From: Mustelus asterias | Lineage: Eukaryota | DNA length: 64,000 nucleotides | Assembly: GCF_964213995.1 (NCBI RefSeq) | Contig: NC_135802.1 | Coordinates: forward strand, 99,572,001-99,636,000 | Reading direction: 5' to 3' | Shown: positions 6,501 through 64,000 of the stretch, piece by piece | Numbering within the stretch: position 1 is the first letter of the stretch | Layout: each line of letters starts with the position of its first letter | Notes under the pieces: model-generated | What the model was told of the DNA's origin: nothing | Database searches by the model: none | Seen by the model: the letters and a program-made list of their open reading frames with translations, nothing else | Made by a program: the position numbers and the translations under genes

Positions 6501-6930
6501 AAATTGTGAATTACTCAAGATTGCAGTTCTACCCACTCCTTTACCTGAGGAAAGTTTGGTCCTGAAGCTCTTCTTGAGCAAGAAACGGAGACCCTACAGA
6601 AAAATAGAAAAGGTTTTAAAAATGAGTGGGGAGTACCCCCTCCATTAAGTCAACATAGACCAGCACCCATCCCTTGAGCAAGAGTTATTTCCCCACCTGA
6701 ACTCCCATCGCCCCTCACATGTTATCCCCTAACTTAATTTTCCCTTTTACTCAAACCCTTGCCCGAACTACAATTCCACACCATCCCCACAAACTCAACC
6801 AGGTCAACTGTTCCATGCCTCAATTCTTCTGCTGATTTGAATTCTACTTCTTTCAGCATTGCTGTCCCCTCATTTTCCCTTTTCTATTGCTCCTGCCCTC
6901 CCATTTTGCCTCCCTTATTCTCCGCCTTCT

Positions 6931-8797
6931 TAACCCTGCTTGACTTTACCTGTGTTAACCCTGCTTGACTTTACCTGTGTTAACCCTGCTTGACTTTACC
7001 TGTGTTAACCCTGCTTGACTTTACCTGTGTTAACCCTGCTTGACTTTACCTGTGTTAACCCACTGTGAATACTTTACTTCAGTATTCACAGTGGAAAAGG
7101 ATCTTGGTAGTTGCAGTGCAGACTTGCAGTGGACTGAGAAGATTGAGCATGTGGACATTAGGAAAGAGGATGTGTTGGAGCTTTTGAAAAGCATCAAGTT
7201 AGATAAATCGCCAGGACCAGATGGGATGTACCCCAGGTTACTGTGGGAGGCGAGGGAAGAGATTGCTGAGCCTCTGGCGATGACCTTTGCCTCATCAGTG
7301 GAGACGGGAGAGGTTCCGGAGGATTGGAGGATTGTGGATGTGGTTCTGTTATTCTAGAAAGGGAGAAGAGATAGCCCGGGAAATTATAGACCAGTGAGTC
7401 TAACCTCAGTGGTTGGTAAGTTGATGGAGAAGATCCTGAGTGGCAGGATTTATGAACATCTGGAGCGGAATAGTATGATCAGAAATAGCCAGCACGGCTT
7501 TGTCGAAGGCAGATCATGCCTTACGAGCCTTTGAAGATGTAGCTAGACACATAGACGAGGGAAGAGCGGTAGATGTAGTTTATATGGATTTCAGCAAGGC
7601 GTTTGATAAGGTGCCACATGCAAGGCTTATTGAGAAAGTGAAGGGGCATGGGATACAAGGGGACATTGCCTTGTGGATTCAGAACTGGCTTGCCCTCAGA
7701 AGGCAAAGAGTGGTTATAGATGGGTCTTTTTCAGCCTGGAGGTCGGTCACCAGTGGAGTGCCCCAGGGATCTGTTCTGGGACCCTTGCTCTTTGTGATTT
7801 TTATAAATGACCTGGATGAGGAAGTGGAAGGATGGGTTGGCAAGTTTGCTGATGACACAAAGGTTGGTGGTGTTGTGGATAGTGTAGAGGGATGTCAGCA
7901 GTTGCAACGAGACATAGATAAGATGCAAGACTGGGCGGAGAAGTGGCAGATGGACTTCAACCCAGATAAGTGTGTGGTGGTTCATTTTGGCAGGTCGAAT
8001 AGGATGAAAGAATATAATATTAAGGGTAAGACGCTTGGCAGTGTGGAAGATCAGAAGGATCTTTGGGTCCGGGTTCATAGGACGCTCAAAGCAGCGTCGC
8101 AGGTAGAGGCTGTGGTTAAGAAGGCATATGGAATACTGGCCTTCATCAATAGAGGAATTGAGTTTAGAAATCGGGAGGTAATGCTGCAGCTGTATAGGAC
8201 CCTGGTCAGACTCCACCTGGAGTACTGTGCCCAGGTCTGGTCGCCTCATTACAGAAAGGATGTGGAAGCCATAGAAAGGGTGCAGAGGAGATTTACAAGA
8301 ATGTTGCCTGGATTAGGTGGCATGCCTTATGAGGATAGGTTGAGAGAGCCAGGTCTTTTCTCCTTGGAGAGGTGAAGGATGAGAGGTGACCTGATAGAGG
8401 TGTATAAGATGTTGAGGGGTATTGATAGAGTGGATTCTCAGAGGCTTTTACCCAGGGCTGAAATGGTTGCCACAAGAGGTCACAGCTTTAGGGTTCTGGG
8501 GAGTAGGTACAGAGGAGATGTTAGGGTTAAGTTTTTCACTCAGAGGGTGGAATCGGCTGCCGGTAGTGGTGGTGGAGGCGGATTCGATAGGGTCTTTTAA
8601 GAGACTTTTGGATAAGTTCATGGAAGTTAGTAAGATATAGGGTTATAGGTAAACCTAGTAGGTAGGGACATGTTCGGCGCAACTTGTGGGCCGAAGGGCC
8701 TGTTTGTGCTGTAGCTTTTCTATGTTCTAACCCTGCTTGACTTTACCAGTGTTAACCCTGCTTGACTTTGCCTGTGTTAACCCTGCTTGACTTTACC
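6931..8797 (+). repeat. 25-bp minisatellite (TAACCCTGCTTGACTTTACCTGTGT) split by the CR1: 5 units left, about 3 right
   Basis: Units at 6931, 6956, 6981, 7006 and 7031; the array resumes at 8728. Confidence 0.92.
7062..8727 (+). mobile_element. 5'-truncated CR1 LINE (ORF2 reverse transcriptase plus 3' tail)
   Basis: KSPGPDG, DFSKAFDKV, GVPQGSVLGPLLF, KFADDTK and LEYCAQVWSP motifs, with a stop and a frameshift. Tail TTCTATGTTCTA. TAACCC duplicated at the junctions. Confidence 0.95.
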
Positions 8798-8952
8798 TTT
8801 TTTGGGTAACAATGAGAAAGTACAGGGGTCGCTGGGAGTGTTTTGGAAAGTTTAGAGTGAACCTACTGCAAAATGTAATCAGAAATCAGACTGTAACAAT
8901 TGTCTCTTTTTTAAATCCTCAGTCAGATTTTCTCCAAATAAAAAATGCTTCG

Positions 8953-16553: not shown

Positions 16554-16744
16554 TAATCTCATCTAATTTCATCAATTCCTATTACAGCCTGGTCATGAGT
16601 GATTGTGGGCCATTCCAGAGGGAGAGGGAGTGTGTGTGGGGGGGGCGGGGGGGGTGGAAAGAAGACATAATGACAATAGATGCCGGGCACCACCAGGAGG
16701 AAATGCCACTTGATCCATCAGAAGTCATTCTTCCATGTGGCATG

Positions 16745-16961
16745 ATGTGGAGATGCCAGCATTGGACTGGAGTGGGCACAGTAAGAAGTCTCTCAACACC
16801 AGGTTAAAGTCCAACAGGTTTATTTGGAATCACACGCTTTTGGAGCGCTGTTCCTTCATCAGGTGAGTGATTCACCTGATGAAGGAGCAACACTCCGAAA
16901 GCTTGTGATTCTAAATAAACCTGTTGGACTTTAACCTGGTGTTGAGAGACTTCTTACTGTG
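16745..16961. mobile_element. Family A palindromic hammerhead element in a UBE2E intron
   Basis: Same arms as 679-891. Imperfect 13-bp TSD TCCATG(TG/CA)GCATG at 16732-16744 and 16962-16974. Confidence 0.8.
16872..16908 (+). ncRNA. Minimal type I hammerhead ribozyme motif
   Basis: TCAC-CTGATGA-A-GGAG(CAACA)CTCC-GAA-AGCT-T-GTGA. Stem I TCAC/GTGA, stem II GGAG/CTCC, palindromic AGCT in place of stem III. Confidence 0.7.
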
Positions 16962-18018
16962 TCCATGCAGCATGTGCACTCCATTCTACCAGACTCTATC
17001 CCACTTAATTGATCTCTTCAGGGGAAGTTTTTAATTTCTTAATCTCCTAAATTAATCAAGAAAAATGCAAGCATATTGTTCTGCTTATGCATTTGTGAAT
17101 ACTGAACAATAGGCTACCAGATAGCTGCTGAGTAGGGGAGTGTGCTCCAGTGTTTTGTGTGTGTGTGTGCCTATGGGGGGCGGGGGGAGGGTGCTGTTAT
17201 GCAGGTTCATAACTGATTTCCTGTATAATTGCTTAAAAAAAACAGGTATGGGTAGAAAAAGATAATTGGAAAGTCCTGAATTATTCAAGACACCGTATTG
17301 CCAGATGTCTGAGAAACAGATCTCTTCTGAGTATTGATGTGTGGGGATTTGTACTAGAAGGAGACTTTGGAAAGGAAAATAAAATAATCAAAAACATATA
17401 GCAACAAAATAAGGATTGAGTTCTTCTAAATATCTCATTAGTGTTTATAAAAAATACTTTATCACTTGACATATATGATGATGATAGGATTTGTAGCTTG
17501 TTTAAAGTGTTGACAATTTTTATTAAGTGAGTCTTAAACAAGTATTAAACTCTAGCTATCGATTATACTTGTAGAATATTATGCCATTTGTTTAATTTAC
17601 ACAATCACATTTAGCTGCTGTAAATTTGCCGTCTAAGTTGAGATAGCTGTGAGAGCATGGCAGTGGACTGTCTCTCTGTCCTTTGCCAAAAGATACTATC
17701 AGTTGAGATTTCTGCCCTGGGTTACTATGCAGTATTATCTGTGAATGTGTGTTGCTATGGTCATTAAATGAGGACACAATTGAACTTTATGATTGGTCAC
17801 ACAGTTAAATAGGCAATTAGCAATCAAATGTGAGGCCAGTAAATGAGGTACGATCACATTCATTGCCACTTATGTGGAGTTGCACAGCTGCAAGCAACTA
17901 CTTCAAGACTGTGATTGTGGCAAGACAAATGGGAACTAGAGAAAAAGAAACTGGAATGTTATAACTCGTATCTTATCCTACAGTAAACTGGTAATCAATA
18001 TTTTCTGTTTCATTGCAG

Positions 18019-31835: not shown

Positions 31836-31973
31836 AGTAAGAAGTCTCACAACACCAGGTTAAAGTCCAACAGGTTTATTTGGTAGCAAATACCATTAAC
31901 CTGTTGGACTTTAACCTGGTGTTGTGAGACTTCTTACTGTGCTTACCCCAGTCCAACGCCGGCATCTCCACAT
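31836..31973. mobile_element. Family A element lacking the hammerhead centre
   Basis: Same arms. Perfect 12-bp TSD TATGTCCTTCTT at 31824-31835 and 31974-31985. Confidence 0.82.
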
Positions 31974-32229
31974 TATGTCCTTCTTGCCAAAGGAAACAAT
32001 TTCTCTACTTGGTTTATCAAATTCATTTAATATTTTGAATACCTCTAGTAGGTTAACCTTTACTTACCATGCAGTGAGGAGAACAAACCCAGTTCTTACA
32101 AACTCACTACATAAAAATATCCCATCCCGGGTATCATCCTGCTAAATCTCCCCCGTACTCCTTCCAAGACCTTGCTGAGGTGTATAAAAGTTTAGCATGA
32201 CTTTTAGATTCCATGCCCCAATCTACAAA

Positions 32230-32444
32230 TGATGTGGAGATGCCAGCGTTGGACTGGGGTAAACACAGTAAGAAGTTTAACAACACCAGGTTAAAGTCCA
32301 ACAGGTTTGTTTGGTAGCAAAAGCCACACAAGCTTTCGGAGCCCCACTCACCTGAAGAAGGGGCTTGGAGCTCCGAAAGCTTGTGTGGCTTTTGCTACCA
32401 AATAAACCTGTTGGACTTTAACCTGGTGTTGTTAAACTTCTTAC
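32230..32444. mobile_element. Family A element (variant arms) with an intact hammerhead core at about 32344-32388
   Basis: CAC-CTGAAGA-A-GGGGC(TTGGA)GCTCC-GAA-AGCT-T-GTG. TSD CCCAATCTACAAA at 32217-32229 and 32444-32456. Confidence 0.82.
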
Positions 32445-47205: not shown

Positions 47206-48990
47206 ATTCACTTGAGATTCAGAGTGGAGAGTGTATTTGACCACAGCCATATTGTGTTTAAAGGAACATTGTGTTACGCAGACTGTTGTAGCTTAAGATA
47301 CGCTTTGCCATCCATGATGACCTTAAAATCTGTGTGTAATTGTGAAACTAAGGGGGGATTAAAGGAGTATTGTGTTATAATCTAATTTTTCCATGTTTAA
47401 TGTTTTTTCCTTGTTGTTAAAGCTAGTTAACAATCCTGTGACTGTTCCTCCATGTTTTATATTAAAAAAATAAAAGCTGTGGTCTTTTGAGCCAGGGTTC
47501 CACTCTGGGATCTTCCTGTACAGTTATAACATCAACTGGAATTGTAAAATTTCCCTTGCTGTACTCTGGCGCATGGGAAGGGAGCAGGAGAATGGCAGCT
47601 TTCATGGAGGATCTGAACAAGCAAGGGTGAGCCAGTGATGGTGGGGAAGGGGGGGTGCGAAATGCTCTTGGGGACATTTAGAGATGGAAGAGGGAGGACA
47701 GTGGGTACATCGTGGGCATGGAGGAGTGAAGTGTGAAGGGTCTGGCATCCAGGGTATGGTGGATGTGTAGTAAGGACAGTCAGTCAAGGTTAGAAAATAA
47801 GGTGCCTCAAGGGCGGTGTTGGTATTATCCAAATATGGTTCCATCTCAGGTTGTGGCTGGCAGATTCCTGACAGGGCGTTGAATTCATCTACGACATTTT
47901 AATTATCCCCCACTGAGAATGATCTCAGGAATGTCCTTTACAATACATAGAAGAGAGAGCCAGCTGAGTCTGTAAGTTCAACTATGTTCCACAGAGTGGT
48001 GACTACAACACTGGACACTAACATGAACATTCAATAAAGAGTGAGCAAAAGGCACATCACTGTTTCTTCCACAATAAAGAAATCTCTCTATCTCCCCTTT
48101 AACCATCAATGCATGCCAACCATGAAGTGTGCCAGGGCATTTAGCTCTCTGACTAAGCTAGTCTCAACAAATAAAAATGAAGCATACATGAATAAAGTGA
48201 AACCCATATAATGAGAATTACTTACAAGTGAAATTTAAATTCGAATGAACACCCATGACACCTCTGTGCTCTCAATAGGTCTTACTTCATTAGCAATAGA
48301 GTTGGACAGAACAGTTTTGACCATGATTCACAGCATTCCTGTTAGAGCAGGGGACTTTTTCATAGCCCACACATAGCTATAGCGTTGTCAGCTGACAGCA
48401 GGTTTCATCACGTAAAGCTTCCCTTGCTGTGGAATCACAGTGTCTCTAAAGTATACTCCTGGCACTTTAAATTTTAATTGTAATCGCGTGGTGAATGGGA
48501 AAAAGCAAAAGAGCAGAAGTGGTGCATGCTTCCAGTTCCGCCATCAAGTCTTGAGCACGAGTTTAAGCCAATGCTCTCAGGTAGTATTGTTGGAGGTGCC
48601 GTCTTTCGGATAAGATGTTAAACTGAGGCCCTGTCTGCCCCCTCAGATAGATGTAAAAAAATCACATGATATTTGAAAGAAGAGTTATTCCCTGTGTTCT
48701 GGTCAAAATTTATTCCTTAACCAATGTTACCAAAATACAGATCATCTATTCATAGGAACATAGGAACAGGAGTAGGCCATTCAGCCCATCAAGCCTGCTC
48801 TGTCATTCAATCCGATCATGGCTGATTAGACAACTTCAATGCCATTTCCCCACATTATCCCCTTCATGTGCATCATCACATTGTTTGTGGGAACTTGCTG
48901 TGTAAAAATTAGTAGCTACATTTCTTATGTTATAGGAATAACTACAACTACAATTCTAAATTGGCTGTAAAGCACTTTGGGATGTTTGAT

Positions 48991-49275
48991 GCCTTTTGGC
49001 TAAGATCAAGTGTAGTATCGACATGCTGTACTTGGTTGAAGTCATTAGGCTACATTTTAGCTTAATTTGAAGCAATTTTTAAAAGCGGCATCTCGGCCTT
49101 TTGGCTAAGATGCAAATGAGATCAAGCCTTGGAGGAGGTGCAATGGGTGCTCCAATCAGCTTGGAACATGTAGATCAAGCCAAGACAGGAGGTGAAAGCC
49201 CTGTCTTGTCAGCTTGGATCGGGAATGTCTCACTTGTTGAGACTCTGAATTGGACTTGATTTGATTGAATTGGAT
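48991..49275 (+). mobile_element. U2 snRNA-headed repeat (two U2 5' fragments plus tandem hairpins) inserted in a SINE tail
   Basis: 48991-49019 matches U2 nt 12-40 (GCCTTTTGGCTAAGATCAAGTGTAGTATC). 49091-49111 matches U2 nt 7-27. The flanks join into a SINE-type tail (AAAGCACTTTGGGATG...TGAAAGG...ATATAAATG). Confidence 0.7.
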
Positions 49276-50919
49276 AAATAAATGAAAGGGGCCATATAAA
49301 TGTAAATCTTTCTTTCTAATACTCCGTGGCAAATGACTTTGTGAAGATAGGAGAAGGAGAACATCATTCAGGAAGGGCAGTAACTAGGATTGAATTGGGA
49401 GATATGGGGATGTGTTGATCTTGAAGTATTTATACAAAATGTTCCCTTAGGAAAGGAGTCAACAACTTTTCTCATCTTGGGAGGCTTTTTCTAAAAACAT
49501 ACCTTCAATAAAATCTATTGATAGTCACAAGATGAGAATTCAACATTTCTAAACCAAATATTTGACAAATTGCCAACTGTCCCTGGTAGAATATATGATT
49601 TGCATAAATAAGAAAAGTATTGAATTCATGTCTCAGTAGAAAAAAAACAATTAAAGTAGATTTCATTCTGAATTATCACATTTTTGACATTGTTTTTAGT
49701 ACAATTGTGAATGTAAAGTCATCATTAAAGCAAATTTCAACATGCATAGGAGTGGGTTTTTTGCCATTATTTTTGTGCTTTAAAAGAAGTTTCTAATAGC
49801 ACATTCAAAATAATTTCTCATCTCAGCTATATTAGAAACAATAATAATTATAACCATAAAACCTTGAACCAAAGGCATTTTCTAAAACCATGGTGAAGCA
49901 ATACCACTTGAACCACAGGATGCTCTGACTTCCCATGAAATCTTTCCCTCTCAGCTGGCCTTCAGCAACGTTCCTTCTCCACTAGCATGGATATCGACTT
50001 TTGACCACTCCAATACATTTAGATGATGACACAGAGGATAGGGGAGCCCTGAGAAACCCTGTTGATTTCCCTTTTACTGACACAGTTTAATTGACCCATG
50101 CAATTCCAGTGCAGGATCGAAGAGTATGGAGCCTGCACTTGTGGGAAGAACTTGCCAACCTGGTATTTTAACCACCTCCATTTCTTGTTAAGATTACGGA
50201 GTTAAGGTGAATAGATGCAGTTCATATATAGATCAGCCATGATTTAATTAAATGGCACAAAATGCTTGAGGGGTTGAATGGCCTAATCCTGTTCCTATTT
50301 TCCTAAACCTTCTTAAGGCCGGGAGGACCTTTTATGGTTGAGTCAGATCCATTTTTAAAATCAGGGTTTCTTCAAGTGTTTAGCTCTTTCTCCTTTCCAA
50401 AGATATAGTGAGTTATGCGCTGCCTGGTATAGAGGCGGGTTGCTTCACATCCTTTTAAAAAGCACCTGGATGAGCACTTGGCACATCTTAACATTCAAGG
50501 CTATGGGCCAAGTGCTGGCAAATGAGATTAGGTGGGAGGTTAGGTATTTCTGGCGTGTCGGTGCAGACTCGATGTGCCGAAGGGTGTCTTCTGCACTGTA
50601 TGATTCTATGAGTGTGCCTAGCTGTAACATGGGATTGTCCTCAGTTCCAGAGATAGGCTCCCATGCAGAAAATTTCTGGGGGATCACCCTGCTTTTATAA
50701 CTGACACCTGAGGAAAATGGATCAGGCTTGTTCAGGCCAAAACTCCTCTCCTCCCCGACAGTGATACCACCATACAGGTAGCTTCAGGTCCACAGCCCCA
50801 GTTGAAGAATTAGCAACGGAAAAGGCACAAAGGTCTCCAAGTCTTTTACTCCAAGTTACAAAGCCAATGCTTAAAATGGACCGGGCAAACCCAAATCCAT
50901 TCCTTGCTTGCTCCAAAAA

Positions 50920-51035
50920 ACAAATCAAATTGAATCCAATTCAAGGTCCCCATAAGAGAGACAAATAATATCCAAGCTGACAAGATGAAGCACTGCATCC
51001 TATCTTAGGCTTGATCTGATGCTTGACCTTAGCTT
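50920..51035 (-). repeat. Diverged relative of the U2-headed element
   Basis: The minus strand reads GCTAAGGTCAAG...AGATCAAGCCTAAGATAGG...CATCTTGTCAGCTTGGAT...GTCTC...GGGAC...TGAATTGGATTCAATTTGATTT, which is colinear with 49171-49270. Confidence 0.65.
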
Positions 51036-51219
51036 AAACTTCTATGGCTCTACAAAATAAAAATAACAATAGTATCTTATTTGTAGATTTCAACTGATTT
51101 TCTTTGACAAAAAAATTCCCTCTAAGTTATCTTTGCAATCTGGAAATGAGTGTGGAAACTATGGCCAGGCACGGAATCTGGTAAACATCTTCGCTAATGA
51201 GGCAATTCTTGTGACATTA

Positions 51220-56699: not shown

Positions 56700-59590
56700 A
56701 AATAGTTCATTGCAAACTGACCCCGACTCATTGATACTTTCTCATGAGACCAATGATTTCGTTGTGCATGCGCTGTGGAGCACCCATACCCCAGATGAAA
56801 TCCAGTCAGAGAGAGCACCTCCTCTGAGGAGGAGAACAGAGACAGTGGAGGCCAGGTGGTCACAGGCATCACCCTGGAGCAGAGGAGCAGACACAGGGTG
56901 TTTAGGGTCAACAGAAGGGCAAGGAGGCCCTACAGAAGATGCCACTAACCAGCTGCCACTTTGACATGACTGAGGTCTGGTGCTGCAGGAGGCTACAGTT
57001 TTCAAGGAAAGCCGTCATGACCATCTGTCAGATGATCTGCCCGGAGATGACCATCAATTGTGTGGGTGGATACCCAATGCCCGTGGCTCACAAGATCATT
57101 GTTGCACTTAACTTTAATGCCTCCGGATCCTTCCTATGGGGATCTTTGCGGAGTCTCGCAGTCAGCTATACATACACATGTGTCAATTTGGTGACTGACA
57201 CCCTTCTCAGATGGCTAAGAACATTCATTCATTTCAGGATCAATCAATTCAGCCAGGCTGAGCGAGCCAGCAGCTTCACTACAATTGCAGAGATTCCCCT
57301 GGATTCAGGGTGCCACCGATTGCCCCATGTGTCCATCAAAGCATCAGCTAGCCAGCCGGGTGCCTTTGTGAACAGGAAGGGGTTTCACTTCATGAATGTT
57401 CAGATAGTTTGTGACCACAAGACCCAGAATCCACAGATCTGTGCAAGGTACCCTGGCACTCCCATGATGTCAACATTCTACACCACTCACAACTTCCAAG
57501 GTTGTTCACGGCTCCGGTACGCCTTGATGGATGGTTGCTTGGTGACAAAGAGTATCCCTTGAAAAGGTGGCTGGTGATGCCTCTCAGGCATCTGAGGACA
57601 GAGGCAGAGGGGAGATACAATCTCAGCCACAGATCCACAAGGGCGATGGCGGAGAGGACCATTGGCCTGCAGTTCCGATGCCTGGAGCACTCCAGGGCGC
57701 TCTGCAGTATCCATCAGAGAAAGTGTTGCTTATCATGGTTGTCTGCTGTGCTCTTCACAATTCCGCTTTCTCCAGAGTGATCTACTAGACCAGGCAGACA
57801 CTGAGGCAGGTGCATATGACCCAGAGGAGGAAACTAAAAATGACTCATCTGCAGAGCCCGAGCAGCCAAAGGGCAGGAGCAAAGAAATGAGGAACTTTCA
57901 GGGAGGCAGGGACATCAGGGAGGCCTCGATTCAGAGTTTTTTCAGCCAGGCTGCCCTGTCTTCCATCTGAGTTCATGGACAGCACCTCCATCCCAACCAG
58001 CTCACACGTAACCATTCCAGGAGCCCAGTGCAGCATCATAGCCTTAGTAATAATGCTTGATGGCCCATGTCTCTCACTAAACACTGATGAGGCTAACACT
58101 AAATGAATACACAGGACATGGCTTCTGAGAAATTAATAAGTTATGGTGATAACATTAACAGTAAACAAAGCAAAAACATCCAATCTAAACTTAAGTAATA
58201 GGAAAGAAAACACAAGCATCCAGTGCAAACCCTTGGCTGTGCTCAGTGTCTTAAGCTACCATTTGCAGGTGCTACGTCTAGCCACCACTCACCCAGCCCG
58301 CTCCAACTCGCTGACGGTGACATTAGAGGCAGCTTGTAGATGACATTGGCGGTCGTCCTCTTGCTGGTGGAGCCTGAGCAGGCACCGCTGGGCAGAGTGC
58401 GTTCAGCAACATGGCTGGGCACTCCTCAGTTGCCATGGATTCTGAGGATGGTGCAGTGAGTGGCAGAGAAGCAAAGGAGCTACAGCCCTTGTTCGGGGTG
58501 CCATGAGAGGACACCCCAGAGACAATAGCCAGCTCATCCACCATTGGGAGGTTTGTCTTGACCTCTCTGCTAGCAAATGAAGGATGGGCACCCATCTGAG
58601 AGTCTGGGTGCCGCACCTTTAATAGTGACCTCCTGGAGTCAGTGTTTGTGTGAGGGCTTGCAGGTCCGAGTGAAACCCCTGGAACCCTTCATTCCATTCC
58701 CAGAGCTGTTTCTCCACAAGAGTCAGCATTCTGTCAATGGATGAGGCTGTGCACATGGTACCACGGGTCAATGCAGCGCTTGTGCTCAGCAAGGACTCCT
58801 CCATGACAGAGATTATGGACGCAGACCCTCAGGGAACTCCCCAGATCTCCCCGTGCATCCCTCTGGACTCCCAACATCTGACACCTAATAGACGACTCTA
58901 GAAACTCATCACCTTTCTCGGACTCAGCATGGTCCTGGTCTCTAGCACTCCTCCAAATGCCAGCACCCTGTGCACTCCCTATCTCCACCATCTGCTCAAG
59001 CGAGCGTGATGTGCCCTCATCATTGTGCACTACCAACTCCATCCCTCAGCAAGAGCGTGCACTTCCTGATTGTCACCACCTCCACAAAGGCTCACAGCCA
59101 CTTATTGGAGGAACAGGGTGCTTGCTGCCCAGCTAAGATACACCCCCGTCCTCCCCCCAACCTGGTGTGACTTCCAGCTGCCACCATTAGCTCCCTCTGG
59201 CTCCTCTGTTGCCTTCAGAGGCCTCTGGGAGCCACCTTTAATCTTTGCATTGGGTTGCTATTGGACCTATTGCCCGCCCACTGACCTGCTGACCTGATGT
59301 GGACATGACATTCTTGGCAGTCCAGGCTTTCTGAGGATAAATGAATTATGGCAATGCCAGGATAGCAGGAATAGATATGTAAAAATTGTTTGCAGTGATC
59401 ATAGAGGACATGCAGGTACAGGGACTGATAACTCTTGCAGTTCATGTATGTCTCAACACATAGGGTGCCAGTTCGCCACGTGTGTGCAGTCGACTACATC
59501 CTGCACCTGAGGGAATCCTGAGACCATAGCAAATCCTGTTACCTTCTGTGTTTGCGCCGCACTATCTGTGCCAAAGGAAATTGTGCCCCA
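56700..59590. mobile_element. Degenerate autonomous Harbinger element (transposase plus a convergent accessory-ORF remnant at about 58320-59320)
   Basis: Transposase relic on the + strand. Broken coiled-coil-like minus-strand ORFs converge on it, as expected for the Myb/SANT accessory gene, although no Myb domain is recognisable. Possible right TIR GGAAATTGTGCCC near 59576-59588. Boundaries are approximate. Confidence 0.55.
56900..57800 (+). pseudogene. Frameshifted PIF/Harbinger (HARBI1-like, DDE_Tnp_4) transposase
   Basis: Motifs VALNFNASGSF, FVNRKGFHFMNVQIVCD, ICARYPG, WLLGDKEYPL, YNLSHRSTRAMAERTIG and VCCALHN, spread over three frames. Confidence 0.9.
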
Positions 59591-62778: not shown

Positions 62779-64000
62779 TTTCATCGGAAGCATTTCATGA
62801 ATCTCAATACTATTATATATATGTAGATATAATACCTTTCTCCAAGTCAACTAGCTGCTCCTGTAAATCATATTTTGTTTACTTTATATGACTGCAGCAA
62901 TCTTCTGTATTATTTTCTGAAAGCAAAATACACCAAACTAAGTACTTTCTGATTCCTTAACCCACCCCTCACCCACCCACGCACGTGCACGCACGCACAC
63001 ACACACACACACCTTTTTGAAAATGTTTTCATTATAAATCAGAAAATGGTTAAAGGCAATTGGGAATCTCTTACATTCTCCATACTTCTAAATCCAACAC
63101 TGCCCACTACAGGAACAACAGAATGGATTACATTGTTTGCGTAAGCATTACTGCTATTAGCTTAAAGCCAAGCAATTTACAACTGTTCAGCAAAGCAATA
63201 AAAGCGTCATCATATTGTCGTGTTGAGGGAGAGATCAGCTGCTAGTGCAGATGATAATGGCAGCCTAATGACATTAAATTGTCCTTTGTGACAACTTCAT
63301 GGGATTTGAAATGCTACTAATTCCCACATGATGAAATTAGTAGCATCTCAGTACAGTTGACTGGTCTCAGCTGTGCCTTCTCTGAAAAGCTACACAATGT
63401 GCAAACCACGTGACCTTGGTGTTATACAAACACACTTTGCACTGACAGGCTGTCCTGGTTAGTAACAATCAGCTTTTATCAATTACTTAACCTTAAGGAA
63501 CAGTTTCTGTGCTATCTTTTTTCCACATCATTGTGTCTTGTCATGACTACCACACAGAAGGCAATTTGATGAAATGTTGAGAAACTGTTTATTTTGTGAC
63601 ATTAGAGCTAAAAACTGAACAACGTTAATATCTCATGAACTAAAAGACTGTCAATAAAATTAAAAATAATCACAACTTGCTTATCAAAGGGTTACTGTTG
63701 AACATAGTGTAACCACTGTCAGAGATAAAGGGAAAAAGAATGATTTGCATGGATGTAACAACTTGCATAACCTAAGGACACCCATGTGCTTTACAGCCAA
63801 TGAAATAGTTTTGAAATGTAAGTCACTGTTACCATAAAGCAGCACGGCAGCCAATTTGCACACAGGGCCCTCCCACAAGTGATCATCACCAGATTATCTT
63901 TTTTTTAAATTATGTTAATTGAGACATAACACTGGGGATAACTGCTTTTCTTCAGAATAATGCTGTGGGTTATTTTACATCCGTCGTAAAGAGCAGGCAG

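Follow-up and report, generated by a model that had tools for sequence, protein, structure and literature searches.

A U2 snRNA-headed element with repeated paired modules inserted into the tail of an older SINE

Insertion of a U2-headed block into a SINE tail

The stretch of DNA analysed here, referred to as the window, comprises 64,000 nucleotides of repeat-rich vertebrate DNA with 67 internal repeat pairs. Its repeat signatures, which we take to be SacSINE1/DeuSINE-like, HE1-like and CR1 tails, point to a cartilaginous fish. One of the four scanned ORFs gave a Pfam match, a reverse-transcriptase fragment at 7479–8375 (RVT_1, E = 2e-23), which is flanked by a 25-nt tandem repeat at 6930–7061 and 8728–8798. 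Short direct and inverted repeats cluster at 31836–32444; they are related to 657–905 and 16741–16965 and possibly represent nested MITE-like elements. Broken reading frames at 56906–57970 on the plus strand, the first of them without Pfam match, presumably resemble a Harbinger/HARBI1-type transposase.

At 48991–49281 a non-coding block of about 291 bp splits the tail of an older SINE, which we assume to be DeuSINE/SacSINE1-like. The 3’ part of this host SINE lies to the left of the block (48885–48990, plus strand) and aligns up to 48980 with an uninterrupted copy in the same window (63878–63781, minus strand). The tail is resumed at 49282–49316 (plus strand), which aligns with 63768–63735 (minus strand); this right-flank match was equalled by three of 5000 random 34-mers. 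Between the two flank match points the intact copy (near 63800, minus strand) contains 12 nt, compared to 10 nt preceding the U2 piece at our locus. Approximately 291 bp were therefore gained, with a target loss of at most about 2 nt and without duplication. No target site duplication was found around the block either by eye or by comparison of the flanks (left flank up to 48984), where the best match of 5 out of 6 letters is about the random level. A previous reading of the locus from its letters alone (the sequence-only reading) had proposed that the block interrupts an older SINE tail and moved as a unit, and the alignment to the uninterrupted copy confirms this. The proposed start at 48991 also stands, while the right end lies at about 49281 and not at 49275. 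The host SINE is broken by another, unrelated repeat fragment at 48751–48826 (plus strand), presumably CR1-tail-like, with five more copies in the window that are 79–83% identical.

All features listed by the sequence-only reading, namely two U2 5’ fragments, two modules with inner stems and a small hairpin, are present at the positions it had given. The outer head at 48991–49019 (plus strand) corresponds to U2 snRNA nt 12–40, comprising the 3’ part of stem-loop I and the branch-point recognition sequence. All of its 29 letters agree with the Rfam U2 consensus (34.2 bits, E = 6.2e-5). As the gathering score of the U2 model is 46, nothing in the window reaches it and the locus is not a full-length U2 snRNA gene. 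The inner head (49088–49114, plus strand) contains U2 nt 7–27 at 49091–49111, folded as U2 stem-loop I with three additional non-U2 base pairs (-15.9 kcal/mol, z = -4.3); 49091–49110 match Rfam U2 positions 7–26 in 20 of 20 letters (E = 0.05). Both heads are of U2 origin. Neither a tRNA nor a 5S match covers the element in Rfam, and there is no tRNA in the window, so that the element is not tRNA- or 5S-headed.

The outer head is followed by a feature that the sequence-only reading had overlooked, as it had the second copy described below. Positions 49023–49050 (plus strand) fold back onto U2 nt 12–39, in the MFE as well as in the centroid structure, with two 2x2 internal loops between stems of 15, 5 and 4 bp. 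By-eye counting of this duplex gave 24 pairs, six of them G-U, and no A-C mispair. The region 48985–49045 folds well only on the plus strand (-20.5 kcal/mol, compared to -8.0 kcal/mol on the minus strand). The U2 side carries no changes, whereas the arm departs from the perfect complement at 10 of 28 positions with pairing retained. All six transitions in the arm yield G-U pairs (P = 0.033), a modest bias that was counted post hoc and is suggestive only; the asymmetry between an intact U2 side and a changed arm carries more weight. Between the arm and the inner head lies an AT-rich spacer (49051–49087, plus strand) with T4 and T5 runs and, as a weak match in the motif scan, a relaxed Sm-like site at 49074–49082; Rfam aligns this spacer weakly to the Sm-site region of U2. 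Altogether the motif scan found three T4/T5 runs between 49023 and 49290.

Downstream of the modules the element ends with a terminal hairpin of 6 bp with a 5-nt loop (49227–49243, plus strand) and a 3’ end (49244–49281, plus strand) in which a 9-mer occurs twice at a spacing of 20 nt (49246 and 49266). The terminus is a short A-rich stretch of 6–7 nt and no true poly(A). The 285-nt stretch starting at 48991 folds at -103 kcal/mol (z = -4.56) and none of 200 shuffles was as good. For the 3’ half of this copy the minus strand scores better than the plus strand (z = -3.99 and -1.88, respectively). We also noticed that 49255–49266 in the 3’ end are complementary to the start of the first module (49115–49126, plus strand) at 83% over 12 nt, and that sequence antisense to U2 nt 24–31 recurs four times in the element, so an alternative long-range fold is possible.

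Paired modules and a second copy

The two modules M1 (49119–49167) and M2 (49172–49220) are tandem partners on the plus strand with a period of 53 nt. A partial second copy of the element, located 1.7 kb away on the minus strand, contains a third module, M3 (50969–51017), which was found by BLAST (73% identity over 96 nt, E ~1e-8). Each module opens with AGATCAAG, identical to U2 nt 24–31 in the Rfam consensus, and is closed by a 3’ arm complementary to it. In M1 the resulting lower stem has 7 of 8 pairs and is followed by a 1-nt bulge, and the upper part consists of a 6-bp inner stem, a 15-nt loop and a TCA bulge. M2 has a lower stem of 8 bp and an inner stem of 6 bp that is extendable to 9, and the inner stem of M3 pairs at 6 of 6 positions. 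The inner parts differ strongly in sequence, sharing 8, 13 and 10 of 27 nt in the pairwise comparisons.

The sequence-only reading had pointed out that the divergent inner stems of M1 and M2 both pair, and this proved to be correct for M3 as well. Since the pattern was found without M3, this module constitutes an independent test. When the modules are aligned in the structural register, the inner 6-bp stem is paired in all 18 cells, with four of the six positions varying; the top pair, for example, is G-C in M1, C-G in M2 and T-A in M3. This count depends on a one-base register shift for M2 and on three modules. In the unadjusted MAFFT alignment, with M2 shifted by one base against the others, 85.7% are paired and 27–41 of 500 shuffles score as high; here covariation does not exceed the shuffle control. 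Shuffled inner parts produce such a stem with a probability of 0.008 for M1, 0.003 for M2 and 0.010 for M3. The folding energies of M1 and M3 alone are not exceptional (z = -0.29 and -1.63, compared to -3.88 for M2). Three sequences do not suffice to claim covariation formally. The inner stems covary over the three modules, and the element is represented by more than one copy in the window, the combination of single copy and absent covariation having been named beforehand as the outcome that would speak against the proposal. A loop motif AGGTG, which had been described as common to the modules, is present in M1 and M2, while M3 has AGGATG. A covariance model built from the three modules retrieved only these three in the window, the next match reaching 12.7 bits (E = 0.37).

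Two short motifs within the modules should be mentioned. The 9-mers at the module starts (49120–49128 and 49173–49181 on the plus strand, 51016–51008 on the minus strand) fit GWTCRANNC, which we take to be the Pol III B-box consensus; the fit probably follows from the U2 sequence itself. TCAGC at the bulge is invariant in all three modules (49156–49160 and 49209–49213 on the plus strand, 50980–50976 on the minus strand). Its presumed likeness to the U6 strand in U2/U6 helix I is too short to carry weight.

Both copies are colinear and free of gaps over module, hairpin and 3’ end, with the similarity extending to 49266. In copy 2 the terminal hairpin (50962–50946, within the shared 3’ portion at 50921–50962, minus strand) is still paired despite changes, by means of two G-U pairs. 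This copy has no A tail either and is followed by a T run. Upstream of M3, by-eye comparison to the Rfam consensus revealed a probable decayed U2 head at 51022–51038 (minus strand), which matches U2 nt 15–31 in 14 of 17 letters. The chance of such a match is 3e-6 per position, and 2e-3 for the 9 nt that are not derivable from module duplication; the Rfam search of copy 2 did not report a U2 head. In the MFE structure the head pairs with the 3’ end of copy 2. We do not build on this pairing, since the entire copy is no more stable than its shuffles (z = -0.35). A possible decayed, T-rich duplication of 15 bp surrounds copy 2 (51064–51050 and 50925–50911, minus strand; 12 of 15 letters), a match reached by 1.6% of random flank pairs and one to which we attach no weight. 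Sharing between the two copies in the 64 kb is thus firm for the 3’ 96 nt and tentative for the head. If the head of copy 2 is real, this copy, with a single head and a single module, represents the simpler version; copy 1 would be a later one, in which the module was duplicated and an outer head was added. The block was inserted as a unit, at least two dispersed and diverged versions of it share their 3’ end, and its stems have stayed paired through sequence change.

Relation to known elements and occurrence in sequence data

Several structural classes were considered and rejected. The two copies are not the terminal inverted repeats of one DNA transposon, as the host SINE resumes at 49282, within their span, and among the 25 longest of 36 inverted pairs none joins both ends in the manner of a MITE. 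By eye, the modules are not separated by an H box and the element does not end in ACA, both of which an H/ACA snoRNA would require. The motif scan detected no hammerhead core, as expected of a retrozyme-type element, on either strand of 49023–49290 or of copy 2. Among Rfam ribozymes at E ≤ 10 neither hammerhead nor HDV appeared; the sole ribozyme-class entry, RAGATH-6 in copy 2 (E = 7.6), is not credible. Self-cleavage of the element’s RNA therefore has no support.

In the literature consulted, the only snRNA-headed SINEs are the crocodilian SINEU groups, whose 5’ heads derive from U1 or U2 snRNA. According to the accessible text of Kojima 2015 (PMC4494074), all of them have a poly(A) tail and none was found outside crocodilians; subfamilies of SINEU-1 arose by stacked U2 heads and partial duplication, SINEU has internal oligo-T, and SINEU-2 insertions show deletions or unaltered target sites. 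The same text describes mobilisation by Tx1-Mar with a preference for Mariner-N4. Like SINEU-1 and SINEU-3, the element studied here is shorter than 500 bp and non-coding, with a short U2 5’ head, repeated head addition, partial duplication and internal oligo-T, and its target site is unaltered or truncated as in SINEU-2. In contrast to SINEU it has no poly(A), lies in a SINE instead of Mariner-N4 and resides in what appears to be a cartilaginous fish, the comparison being one of descriptions. The antisense arm and the covarying module are not described for SINEU in the accessible text of PMC4494074. Because both copies are without poly(A) and the comparison is confined to descriptions, we do not file the element as a SINEU member.

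A second point of reference are the retrotransposons Keno (Tx1 clade) and Utopia (RLE/NeSL), which insert into U2 genes. In Utopia insertions U2 resumes downstream at nt 39, and the 3’ flank of Keno is identical, as given in the accessible portions of PMC4640811 and PMC6136364. The outer U2 piece of our element ends at nt 40, 2 nt beyond this insertion site, and thus has the U2 5’ flank expected of such elements, ending within 2 nt of the site. Unlike Keno and Utopia, the element has no reverse transcriptase or endonuclease ORF, no U2 nt 39+ on its 3’ side and no location in a U2 gene; the likeness concerns the U2 piece. The copies are followed on their 3’ side by the host SINE tail (copy 1) and by unrelated DNA (copy 2), not by U2.

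Chimeric or tailless snRNA retropseudogenes, as far as PMC5322556 and PMC4494074 describe them in their accessible text, likewise consist of 3’-truncated U2 pieces joined to other sequence. The element differs from these in that copy 1 has no target site duplication, its U2 pieces form part of a paired structure and a second locus contains the core. An analogy to R2 elements is possible as well. In the R2 ribozyme, the element RNA pairs with upstream target sequence, and pairing of element RNA with upstream host-gene sequence would be the common trait. Co-transcription of R2 with 28S rRNA is cited in the accessible part of PMC4494074. The present element differs from R2 by the lack of a credible ribozyme match, its other target and the lack of an ORF.

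The open-licence full-text literature that we searched yielded no shark element of this kind; a Repbase or Dfam entry is quite possible. The shark SINE paper PMC5499810 deals with tRNA-headed SINEs, and the term snRNA is absent from its main text as accessible. In the accessible text of PMC5381603 and PMC5786205, snRNA-headed SINEs are cited solely through Kojima 2015.

The occurrence of the region in sequence data was assessed with 45 words from 48900–49400. Among the 23 runs listed, which are the best holders, 20 runs from 12 studies contain part of this region; four runs with word shares below 0.2 were left out. Among the runs listed, the share amounts to at most 0.71 in one organism (A) and to 0.40–0.49 in three others (B, C and D), and one run bears the label fish metagenome. 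For organism B the maximum is 22 of 45 words, compared to about 14 (32%) expected from the flanks alone (P = 0.012), whereas 18–19 of 45 words do not exceed what the flanks alone would give (P = 0.15 and 0.09). In organism A, two small data sets (57 and 68 million letters) contain 0.44 and 0.40 of the words, a hint at a multi-copy element. An orthologous site in close relatives could account for all these word shares as well. There are no RNA runs among the runs listed. Pattern scans returned four matches in viral contigs and two in metagenome contigs, none of them similar beyond the pattern. Three of these (L001, L004 and L006) each lie inside a phage-like or bacterial ORF and L005 is nearly identical to L006; we treat all six as chance matches.

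Possible origin of the element

We consider it an even chance that the block belongs to a family of short, non-autonomous retroposons which works like crocodilian SINEU, by repeated addition of U2 pieces. An older core, similar to copy 2, would have consisted of a U2 5’ piece running into AGATCAAG, one module and the terminal hairpin. Template switching during reverse transcription may then have added first the duplicated module and later the outer head, i.e. U2 up to nt 40 with its fold-back arm. Master copies would be transcribed by Pol II from a flanking or a U2 promoter, which we infer because T4 and T5 runs inside the element speak against Pol III. A LINE protein may use the module and the terminal hairpin as a handle for recognition in trans; the RNA would be reverse-transcribed at a nick and inserted without duplication. 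The antisense arms could hold the U2-derived sequence double-stranded and by this keep the RNA from snRNP assembly and splicing. In favour of a SINEU-like retroposon are the insertion without duplication, the second copy, the preserved pairing of inner stems and terminal hairpin, the stacked U2 heads with partial duplication and the oligo-T runs. It counts against this reading that unambiguous U2 heads are found in only one copy, that neither copy has poly(A), that no partner LINE with the element’s 3’ end was found in the window, that the folding energies of M1 and of copy 2 are unexceptional, that the 3’ half of copy 1 scores better on the minus strand and that pairing in the unadjusted alignment stays within the shuffle control.

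The main rival holds that a U2-targeting LINE (Keno/Tx1 or Utopia/NeSL) gave rise to the block as a non-autonomous derivative through internal deletion, which we regard as possible, if somewhat unlikely. A master in a U2 gene after nt 38 would be co-transcribed from the U2 promoter, its first 28 nt having evolved to pair with the upstream U2, and the copy found here would be an off-target landing that carried the U2 leader along. The end of the outer piece just past the Keno/Utopia site fits this scenario, and so does the fully intact 29-letter U2 side opposite a changed arm, as expected for an arm evolving against an unchanging host gene. Moreover, Utopia inserts outside U2 genes in crocodilians, and the accessible text of Kojima 2015 (PMC4494074) records a U2 head on Tx1-11_Crp, a member of a Tx1 group clustering with Keno. 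However, neither copy is followed by U2 nt 39+, there is no ORF of at least 120 aa between 47132 and 53579, and the inner head and the head of copy 2 end at nt 27–31 instead of nt 38; the G-U bias of the arm is modest and post hoc. The sequence-only reading had left the choice between a shark U2-derived SINE and the 5’ end of a U2-targeting retrotransposon. The former corresponds to the SINEU-like retroposon that we favour. The latter survives as a rival for the outer 5’ part only; for the unit as a whole it is contradicted by the defined common 3’ end together with the missing U2 flank and the missing long ORF. As the outer head may derive from a Keno/Utopia-type U2 co-transcript, the two readings overlap.

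A one-off chimeric retrocopy, in which template switching joined U2 fragments and the 3’ end of a structured repeat unrelated to them, appears improbable to us. The arm would then be a decayed fold-back duplication, with only the module and the terminal hairpin forming a family, and the remainder would be an ordinary unclassified repeat. Chimeric and tailless snRNA retrocopies are known as by-products of L1 (PMC4494074 and PMC5322556, in their accessible text), and the portion firmly common to copy 2 is indeed confined to the 3’ 96 nt. Yet the arms of a fold-back duplication should decay alike, while here ten changes on the arm face none on the U2 side and A-C mispairs are absent. In addition, all modules start with U2 nt 24–31 and copy 2 carries a U2-like lead-in of its own, so that the link to U2 runs through the core. 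Very improbable, finally, is the retrocopy of a host-encoded U2-variant small RNA composed of the 5’ U2 region, an Sm site and stem-loop-IV-like hairpins that would bind proteins of the U2B’’/U1A family. Rfam does thread the whole U2 model over 48982–49178, with a T run at the position of the Sm site, and the loop of M3 holds UGCAGU, which also occurs in the U2 stem-loop IV loop AUUGCAGUACC (loop taken from the accessible part of PMC4114683). But the Sm-like site is without its G, the loops of M1 and M2 are without UGCAGU, and the arm would sequester the branch-point sequence. The Rfam score remains below gathering and derives mostly from the first 29 nt, and copies of 73% identity resemble a repeat family more than a conserved gene.

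Two features, the covarying module and a fold-back arm that ends at the Keno/Utopia site, set the SINEU-like element above a routine repeat, on the evidence of two copies and three modules. A second vertebrate lineage with a snRNA-headed SINE would show that this design recurs. The pairing of the arm with U2 up to the Keno/Utopia site suggests a testable route, in which the element is co-transcribed with a U2 gene while its U2 part is masked, and the covarying module is a candidate LINE-recognition signal independent of poly(A). How SINEU is transcribed is described as an open question in the accessible text of Kojima 2015 (PMC4494074), snRNA promoters being located outside the transcript. We tentatively propose, as a rather unlikely extension, a lineage of cartilaginous fish with a master copy in a U2 gene, a borrowed U2 promoter and antisense arms over the branch-point and U6-pairing region. 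If this were true, a parasite RNA would mask the host snRNA sequence it carries while offering its LINE partner a hairpin domain that is repeated and covaries, and this would explain in concrete terms how snRNA-headed SINEs come to be transcribed and tolerated.
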